DNA from: a virus
Taxonomy: Duplodnaviria > Heunggongvirae > Uroviricota > Caudoviricetes
IMG/VR virus record: IMGVR_UViG_2547132077_000007
Length of the DNA stretch: 10,192 bases
Reading direction: 5' to 3' (one strand)
In this document: positions 1,804-1,881 of the stretch, one piece after another
Layout: each line of letters begins with the position of its first letter
How positions within the stretch are numbered: the first letter of the stretch is position 1
Notes under the pieces: generated by a model
Seen by the model: only the letters and a program-made list of their open reading frames with translations
Told to the model about the DNA's origin: nothing
Database searches by the model: none
Translations under genes and position numbers: made by a program

Positions 1804-1833
1804 GATTTTCCCTAATCAATGTTGTGAAGCCTC

Positions 1834-1839
1834 ATTGTA
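1834..1839 (-). promoter_or_regulatory. Candidate -10 hexamer (TACAAT) for a tail-fibre operon promoter, with no properly spaced -35
   Basis: TACAAT on the minus strand, 30 nt upstream of the R-like ATG. The nearest -35-like hexamer (GTGACA, 1852-1857) is only 12 nt away, which is non-canonical for sigma-70. An activator-dependent late promoter would look like this, but that is inference only. Confidence 0.25.
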
Positions 1840-1853
1840 AGAGAAGTAACTTG

Positions 1854-1878
1854 TCACCCCGCCCTACGGACGGGGTGA
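1854..1878 (-). promoter_or_regulatory. GC-rich stem-loop (11-bp stem, 3-nt loop) in the intergenic gap upstream of the R-like gene; possible attenuator/terminator or RNA-stability element
   Basis: Minus-sense RNA 5'-UCACCCCGUCC GUA GGGCGGGGUGA-3' forms 10 Watson-Crick pairs plus one G-U. On the plus strand the same position is a C/A mismatch, so the structure is better on the coding-strand transcript. It begins 3 nt after the TGA of the 278-aa gene and is followed by a moderately U-rich stretch (CAAGUUACUUCUCUU), not a clean U-tract. Confidence 0.5.
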
Positions 1879-1881
1879 TTG

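Follow-up and report, generated by a model that had tools for sequence, protein, structure and literature searches.

A Stable GC-Rich Hairpin Upstream of the Late Promoter Ps/LPs at the Junction of Two Late Transcription Units in a P1-Like Phage

Late transcription in phage P1 is activated by Lpa, and all 11 late promoters of P1 have a conserved inverted repeat of 9 bp that serves as the Lpa site (PMC10695390). The hallmark of the Lpa-dependent promoters is a -10 hexamer without a -35 hexamer (PMC10695390). Host SspA is required for Lpa-dependent late transcription (PMC8201110). In the record of the P1 R gene region (M81956), the "-22 box of Ps" and the "-10 box of Ps" are annotated at positions 532-540 and 545-550, respectively, and position 559 is annotated as "transcription start from Ps phage-specific late promoter". 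The same elements are annotated as the late promoter LPs in the complete P1 genome (AF234172) and in the P7 genome (AF503408). A common layout, (a/g)AC-AAGTGACTT-N4-TANNNT, is seen in the nine annotated late promoters of P7. A "stem_loop 506..530, putative" is annotated in the tail-fibre operon record of 1989 (M25470).

The window analysed here is the whole stretch of 10,192 nucleotides from a P1-like phage, and it is 96-98% identical to P1 and P7. A 701-nt query around the gap between gene 16 and R matched 22 phage records, which share 95.6-98.1% identity with it and belong without exception to P1, P7, or P1-like phages. The long open reading frames of the window lie on the minus strand throughout, and the gene names were taken from the P1 annotation (Table 1). 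Gene 16 is the final gene of the LPsit-driven pmgC-tub-pmgB-sit-pmgA-bplA-16 unit, and gene R is the first gene served by Ps. The gap between them is the junction of two late transcription units in a P1-like phage. On the sense (minus) strand this gap reads UGA(stop) CAA UCACCCCGUCC GUA GGGCGGGGUGA C AAGUUACUU CUCU UACAAU GAGGCUUC A CAACAUUGAUUAGGGAAAAUC AUG. It differs from P1 by three substitutions: C1881 for T, loop U1866 for C, and spacer C1843 for A.

The locus was singled out by an earlier, sequence-only reading of the window, which had placed a 78-nt gap between a translationally coupled block from sit to gene 16 and an R-like gene. The gap lies exactly between the stop codon of gene 16 and the ATG of R, and the coupling is borne out by the 4-nt overlaps in sit-pmgA-bplA-16. 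The same reading had called this the only internal intergenic gap, which is incorrect: a second gap of 81 nt (7977-7897) parts pmgB from sit. A programmed frameshift across the pmgB-sit gap was considered and dropped, the PmgB protein of D6 giving no support for it.

Table 1. Coordinates of the genes in the window and of the elements in the gap between gene 16 and R
Feature	Position in window	Strand	Basis
pmgC	10062-9496	minus	P1 annotation
tub	9485-8874	minus	P1 annotation
pmgB	8859-7978	minus	P1 annotation
sit	7896-4504	minus	P1 annotation
pmgA	4507-4148	minus	P1 annotation
bplA	4151-2718	minus	P1 annotation
Gene 16 (baseplate/tail-tube protein)	2721-1882; stop TGA 1884-1882	minus	ORF list; 96-98% identity to P1/P7, CDS annotated gp16
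Gap between gene 16 and R, 78 nt	1881-1804	minus	ORF list
GC-rich stem-loop, 5'-UCACCCCGUCC GUA GGGCGGGGUGA-3'	1878-1854	minus	RNA folding; homologous to M25470 stem_loop 506..530
-22 box AAGTTACTT, 9-bp inverted repeat, Lpa (late promoter activator) site	1852-1844	minus	Ungapped match to M81956 532-540 and to the LPs -22 regions of AF234172 and AF503408
Weak second helix, predicted in read-through RNA only	1845-1808	minus	Minimum free energy fold of the gap; -6.2 kcal/mol
-10 hexamer TACAAT of Ps/LPs, form TANNNT	1839-1834	minus	Corresponds to M81956 545-550
Predicted transcription start (+1, A) of the R-S-U tail-fibre operon	1825	minus	Ungapped homology to M81956 position 559
Gene R (tail-fibre structure/assembly)	1803-1369; ATG at 1803	minus	ORF list; 96-99% identical to gpR of P1-like phages
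S	from about 1356, runs off the left end of the window	minus	Downstream of R

The downstream half of the gap (1852-1825) is, by homology, the known P1 late promoter Ps/LPs that drives the tail-fibre genes. The window aligns without gaps to M81956, AF234172, and AF503408 at Ps/LPs, and the identities of the promoter, the box, the -10 hexamer, and the start site all rest on homology to the annotated and experimentally mapped Ps of P1. The -22 box AAGTTACTT is identical to the annotated LPs box of P1 and P7, differs by one base from the LPmat and LP23 boxes, and agrees with the boxes of eight other P7 late promoters. It conforms to the consensus AAGTGACTT and lies 4 nt upstream of the -10 hexamer, from which it is separated by the spacer CTCT. 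No -35 hexamer is present 16-18 nt upstream of the -10 hexamer, where the positions are occupied by GGCGGG, GCGGGG, and CGGGGT, and no promoter was called at TACAAT in a sigma-70 scan. A degenerate late-promoter pattern gave two matches in the window, both on the coding strand, where about 0.38 would be expected by chance. These matches are the Ps site and the LPsit homologue upstream of pmgC (10112-10094).

Judged by every sequence-level feature of the family, the promoter in the gap is a member of the P1 Lpa-dependent late promoters. Host RNA polymerase would use the -10 hexamer TACAAT only when Lpa, together with host SspA, acts via the palindromic -22 box, and transcription from about A1825 would yield the R-S-U tail-fibre mRNA. 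The lpa gene is located outside the window. The sequence-only reading had noticed TACAAT without a canonical -35 and had suggested an independent late promoter for the R-S fibre genes. Both points are right, and the second is established knowledge. The "U-rich stretch" that it placed after the hairpin consists of the -22 box and the spacer CUCU and is no terminator tail; the defining element of the promoter, the 9-bp inverted repeat, had thus been missed and taken for a U-tract. The annotation of the gap is settled as the P1 late promoter Ps/LPs together with the Lpa box of that promoter, and all of its elements are of known kinds.

Upstream of this promoter, the 11-bp-stem hairpin that had been read from the letters is present as described. 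It consists of 11 pairs, including one G·U, with a 3-nt loop, begins 3 nt past the final stop codon (that of gene 16) of the 8-kb operon, and ends 1 nt ahead of the -22 box. It forms better on the coding-strand RNA, as had been proposed, with a free energy of -20.4 kcal/mol for the sense RNA and -16.9 kcal/mol for the plus-strand RNA, in which the G·U pair becomes a C/A mismatch. The fold of the whole gap has a free energy of -29.1 kcal/mol on the sense strand (z = -4.78), and none of 200 shuffled sequences was as stable. The corresponding values for the plus strand are -24.2 kcal/mol and z = -3.3. In a 30-nt sliding scan of both strands of the 10.2-kb window, the hairpin is the most stable local structure, at -21.0 kcal/mol versus -18.1 kcal/mol for the next one. 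The structure of the gap is well beyond chance, and the observation is real.

The stem-loop annotated in M25470 maps exactly onto this hairpin. Promoter and hairpin are thus both already known, the stem-loop having been annotated since 1989. The function of the hairpin is unannotated in the accessible records: AF234172 and AF503408 annotate no terminator in the gap, and no terminator feature is annotated in positions 30500-49000 of AF234172. A search of Rfam 15 gave nothing at the gathering score; the best match in 1700-2000 was the P9 sRNA, with 18.3 bits versus a gathering score of 43. Each functional role given to the hairpin below is one that we infer.

The hairpin had been proposed as a partial terminator or attenuator that separates baseplate from fibre expression. 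The stem (11 bp, -20.4 kcal/mol) and the position after the last stop codon of the operon fit a partial terminator, but the U-tract is missing. The tail that follows the hairpin, CAAGUUACU, is U-poor, with three U residues among its first 9 nt, the first 4 of which are free of U. The hairpin was not called in the terminator scan. A TransTermHP-style tail score of -1.75 was obtained for the hairpin, versus -3.1 for the hairpin at LPpac and -4.8 to -5.8 for terminator-like hairpins in relatives (Pantoea/Rosenbergiella). The usual TransTermHP tail-score cut-off is about -2.5. Efficient intrinsic termination by the hairpin is therefore unlikely, and leaky termination appears plausible. No leader peptide with competing alternative structures was seen by inspection of the 78-nt gap and the single predicted fold. 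In P1vir RNA-seq data at 30 min, the gene-level log fold changes of 16 and R are similar (10.97 and 11.24, respectively), values that, being per gene, cannot resolve 3' ends. A literature search for 5'/3'-end mapping of P1, including Term-seq, returned nothing usable.

R homologues with 30-76% identity were recovered from Cronobacter, Salmonella, Citrobacter, Pantoea, Rosenbergiella, Aeromonas, and E. coli (D6 type), where they are carried by phages and plasmids, and the gap between the gene-16 and R homologues is 59-116 nt long in all of these distant relatives. Two layouts are observed. In type A, the stop codon is followed by a GC hairpin, the late promoter, and the leader, as in the P1 group, the D6-like phages, and the E. 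coli plasmid CP104667. The type A hairpins of these three lineages (UCACCCCGUCC..., UUCUUCCCCC..., and GGCCCCGCC..., respectively) are unrelated in sequence. Within the D6 group the stem is kept and the loop, of 6-7 nt, is free to change; the GCAUUU of one member is the exact inverse of the AAAUGC of another. The tail of the D6 hairpin contains almost no U, and the hairpin of D6 itself has a C/A mismatch and pairs better on the antisense strand. The conserved block after the D6 hairpin is a late promoter: six late genes or operons of D6 (R, lydA, pmgB, prt, ddrB, and darB) have the motif AAATCACA-N7-TANNNT in front of them.

In type B, found in JK004, the Salmonella Newport plasmid, Pantoea, Rosenbergiella, and Citrobacter, the stop codon is followed by the late promoter, the hairpin, and the ATG. 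The 5' arm of the type B hairpin overlaps the -10 hexamer and the 3' arm holds the Shine-Dalgarno sequence, the assignment of the -10 hexamer being uncertain for Citrobacter. In Pantoea, Rosenbergiella, and Citrobacter, a run of U4-U7 follows the hairpin directly before the R start codon. In the JK004 lineage, the box lies 1 nt past the stop codon, with no repeat upstream of it. Eleven representatives were compared, and in all of them the most stable hairpin of the gap begins upstream of the inferred start site, with either its whole length or its 5' arm on that side. The unrelated hairpins at the same site in the D6-type phages argue for a selected structure.

Since the 5' arm or the whole hairpin lies upstream of the start site, only the RNA of the baseplate operon can form the complete hairpin. 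We favour, as a reasonably probable explanation, a combination of Ps/LPs in the downstream part of the gap with a hairpin that would serve as an insulator on read-through RNA, either as a leaky terminator, as a 3' stabilizer, or as both. This explanation is preferred because promoter-initiated RNA cannot form the complete hairpin in any of the 11 representatives. The hairpin would exist only in RNA begun upstream, at LPsit or further up. There it would insulate the 3' end of the baseplate unit, as a weak and leaky intrinsic terminator and/or as a barrier to 3'-to-5' exonucleases, and expression of the fibre genes would then depend mainly on fresh initiation at Ps.

A purely stabilizing role is less probable. 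Polymerase would read through the hairpin with no meaningful termination, the RNA would be cut in the AU-rich promoter and leader and trimmed back to the hairpin, and the baseplate mRNA would be protected. The stem is stable and GC-rich, it lies 3 nt past the stop codon without a U-tract, and the region 3' of it is AU-rich and predicted to be single-stranded. The D6-type hairpins stand at the same place, again with a tail almost devoid of U. Protection of upstream cistrons by intercistronic hairpins is known from polycistronic mRNAs (REP and puf types), which speaks for such a role. The canonical U-runs in the same gap of Pantoea, Rosenbergiella, and Citrobacter, however, suggest selection for the stopping of transcription and not for RNA protection alone.

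Variation among close relatives was analysed in a P1-group sample of 133 loci, comprising 83 viral-contig or genome loci and 50 metagenome loci; a scan of species-representative genomes had provided only 7 loci. The stem is kept in the 133 loci, and variation is found in the loop, at all three positions, and in the 5' arm. The interior stem changes all preserve pairing in the sense RNA: a C-to-U change (G-C to G·U) is found twice and a U-to-C change (G·U to G-C) once. The two basal pairs are broken in 5 loci. The covariation analysis that had been suggested for the hairpin was run on this group, and no double compensatory changes were found in the 133 loci, a negative result that follows from too little divergence within the group. 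A formal count gave 98.3% of cells paired, and is uninformative since the shuffles were identical to the observed values. The direction of the stem changes mildly favours a structure of the sense-strand RNA.

The hairpin was also compared with the regions ahead of the other late promoters. In the 60 nt upstream of the nine P7 late promoters, free energies of -1 to -16 kcal/mol were obtained for eight, versus -23 kcal/mol for LPs, and a strong upstream hairpin is found at LPs only. A generic role of the hairpin in Lpa promoters was rejected, as the eight others lack it. LPpac follows a co-directional gene (lpa), and a small 5-bp GC hairpin with UUUU abuts its box. This distribution, with a strong hairpin at LPs only and a partial parallel at LPpac behind a co-directional gene, associates the structure with the end of the preceding gene and not with activation by Lpa.

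No variation is seen in the 3' arm among the P1-group relatives, and since this arm covers about -39 to -29 of the promoter, a promoter-related constraint could account for part of its conservation. The last bases of the arm (UGA, then C) coincide with the flank tgac, taac, or tcac that precedes most boxes. From such features it could be argued that the inverted repeat acts at the DNA level within the promoter, either by offering Lpa, SspA, or RNA polymerase a surface to contact or by forming a cruciform that adjusts Ps activity. The contrast across the 133 loci between an invariant 3' arm and a variable 5' arm and loop would be in keeping with this, as would the match of the final TGAC to the flank at several late promoters. 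The difference between the arms, with 4/11 and 0/11 variable sites, is nevertheless not significant (estimate, p about 0.09). Furthermore, eight other late promoters work without such a repeat, and their -29 to -39 regions are unrelated. The box of the JK004 lineage follows the stop codon after 1 nt with no repeat, and the D6-type hairpins differ in sequence and loop length, unlike a protein site. A DNA-level role is regarded as improbable.

We attach equally little weight to the view that the hairpin has no current function and is a neutral palindrome or a relic at the border of the conserved baseplate and mosaic tail-fibre modules. Compensatory covariation is absent, the basal pairs are dispensable, and the inverted loop in the D6-like phages shows palindrome dynamics at the DNA level. 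The region is also a module border prone to recombination and insertion, and V01534 calls it an IS2 hot spot. Against a neutral origin, the hairpin is the strongest fold in 10 kb, three lineages have independent and unrelated hairpins at this site, and the interior of the stem has admitted only pair-preserving changes across 133 loci in which all three loop positions vary. Termination of antisense (plus-strand) transcription from the fibre/C-segment side is very unlikely: the plus-strand tail UUGUCAGG does score -3.30 versus -1.75 for the sense tail, and UUAUUA follows the D6-type hairpins on the antisense strand, but these T-rich tails merely complement stop codons (TGA CAA and TAA TAA), the plus-strand hairpin is the weaker one with its C/A mismatch (-16.9 kcal/mol), no plus-strand promoter or gene is evident nearby, and the palindromic box has no TANNNT on its other side.

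Insulation of the read-through RNA by the hairpin might be assisted at the level of translation in some relatives. In the weak second helix predicted for the read-through RNA of the window, UUCUCU (1845-1840) pairs with the Shine-Dalgarno sequence AGGGAA (1813-1808) and CAAUG (1837-1833) with CAUUG (1821-1817), and the start site at 1825 sits in the loop. The predicted probability that the R Shine-Dalgarno sequence is unpaired is 0.05 or 0.43 in the read-through RNA, depending on the flanks, versus 0.64-0.89 in the promoter-initiated RNA. The pairing with the Shine-Dalgarno sequence is predicted to be strengthened by C1843 in the window, and the masking effect is absent from P1 and P7, which have A and not C at this position. 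Masking was rejected as the main mechanism in the window, being dependent on the flanks, absent in P1/P7, and hence not robust. In JK004, the Salmonella Newport plasmid, D6, CP104667, and Pantoea, the Shine-Dalgarno sequence is predicted to be less often unpaired in the read-through RNA than in the promoter-initiated RNA, with p about 0.015-0.03 for each of the five against shuffled controls.

In phage T4, the ribosome-binding sites of e, soc, 49, and I-TevI are sequestered in a hairpin of the early read-through RNA, and late transcription begins within that hairpin. A similar complementarity between -10 hexamer and Shine-Dalgarno sequence is found at LPsit and LPdar in P1/P7 and at R and ddrB in D6, which hints that such a design is general in this phage group and comparable to that of T4 gene e.

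As a tentative generalization, which we consider rather doubtful at present, P1-like phages may share a conserved and undescribed insulation device, in which read-through RNA would be terminated, trimmed, or translationally silenced and only Lpa-initiated RNA would express the fibre genes. Among the relatives, a hairpin with a U-run would terminate transcription, a hairpin with the Shine-Dalgarno sequence in its stem would mask translation, and the P1 layout would provide a leaky terminator and/or an exonuclease barrier. This comparative pattern of hairpins across P1-like lineages is the only mildly new element of the analysis. If the pattern is true, it would explain how P1-like phages uncouple tail-fibre from baseplate expression, and it would matter for the engineering of P1 host range by swaps of the R-S-U module.

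Among known systems, the closest is Ps (LPs) of the R-S-U operon of P1 itself (M81956, AF234172) and of P7 (AF503408), where the box, the -10 hexamer, the spacing, the leader, and the R start codon match those of the window exactly; the same stem-loop stands upstream at the P1 Ps locus. The arrangement box-N4-TANNNT without a -35 hexamer is likewise that of LPsit, LPdar, LPpac, LPmat, LPpro, LPlyz, and LP23 of P1/P7. The hairpin at LPpac has a real U4 tail and just 5 bp, whereas the hairpin at LPs is strong (-20 kcal/mol) with a U-poor tail. Rho-independent terminators resemble the hairpin of the window in being GC-rich stem-loops right after the last gene of an operon and differ from it in having an adjacent U-tract. 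The T4 arrangement is resembled by JK004, the Salmonella Newport plasmid, D6, CP104667, Pantoea, and Rosenbergiella, in which the hairpin that holds the R ribosome-binding site overlaps the late -10 hexamer with its 5' arm. In the window and in P1/P7, by comparison, a weak version of this arrangement or none is found, and the dominant structure of the window lies wholly upstream of the promoter. Of the known systems, the hairpin would behave most like an intercistronic 3' stem-loop.

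The gap between gene 16 and R had been taken as the only internal gap in the sequence-only reading; this is contradicted by a second one, located between pmgB and sit. A +1-frame ORF overlaps pmgB and ends 11 nt short of the sit start. Extension of PmgB into this ORF by frameshifting is unsupported, because the D6 PmgB stops earlier and does not match the ORF. Within the pmgB coding region lies a local hairpin that ranks second in the window for stability, with predicted energies of -18.1 kcal/mol for the sense strand and -17.3 kcal/mol for the antisense strand. A homologue of the late promoter LPsit is found upstream of pmgC. 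Immediately 5' of the pmgC Shine-Dalgarno sequence GAGG is GAUUCUAC, to which the promoter's -10 region, GUAGAAUC, is complementary; pairing of the two is predicted to form a hairpin of -12.9 kcal/mol. The predicted values for masking of the pmgC Shine-Dalgarno sequence at this promoter are 0.26 vs 0.27, which is not significant.

Coordinates of the gap, ORF, hairpin and promoter features
Feature	Position	Strand	Details
Internal gap, pmgB to sit	window 7897-7977	minus	81 nt
+1-frame ORF	window 7908-8213
Hairpin in pmgB	window 8085-8114
LPsit homologue (late promoter)	window 10071-10112	minus	box AAATGACTA, spacer CTCG, -10 TAGAAT
LPpac hairpin region	compared sequence L014 47290-47352 = P7 97290-97352		directly after lpa gene

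The R region was also identified in other records. V01534.1 covers P1 from the 3' end of gene 16 through the gap and R into the first part of S, and the region is described in that record as an IS2 insertion hot spot. An R region of the P1-like type, 97% identical, appears in JAFAFU010000077.1, a contig of 3.7 kb with the title "MAG: Bacillota bacterium"; its presence there is probably due to misbinning or contamination and not to a phage of Bacillota. In one P1-like contig, L027 (IMGVR_UViG_2913167280_000003), the -22 box of the late promoter LPs reads AAGTGACTT in place of AAGTTACTT; the former is the consensus -22 box among the remaining late promoters. The hairpin upstream of LPs in this contig carries two loop changes.

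In D6-like viral contigs, a post-stop hairpin is located ~90 nt 5' of the R start. The stem, TTCTTCCCCC / GGGGGAAGAA, is identical in L104 and L110, but the loops differ: one set has GCATTT and another has AAATGC, its exact reverse complement. This difference is an inversion of the palindrome loop. In phage D6 (MF356679), the motif AAATCACA-N7-TANNNT recurs 5' of R, lydA, pmgB, prt, ddrB and darB, and looks like a late promoter of D6 type; the motif is distinct from the P1 -22 box. At two of these sites, R and ddrB, the first gene has a Shine-Dalgarno sequence complementary to the -10 region, and the predicted masking is significant. Such complementarity is also visible at pmgB, darB and prt, where the predicted masking is not significant.

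At LPpac of P7, a small GC hairpin (GCCCG-UUC-CGGGC) is followed by CUUUUGAC and adjoins the LPpac -22 box. This order of terminator and then late promoter parallels the gene 16-R junction of the window.
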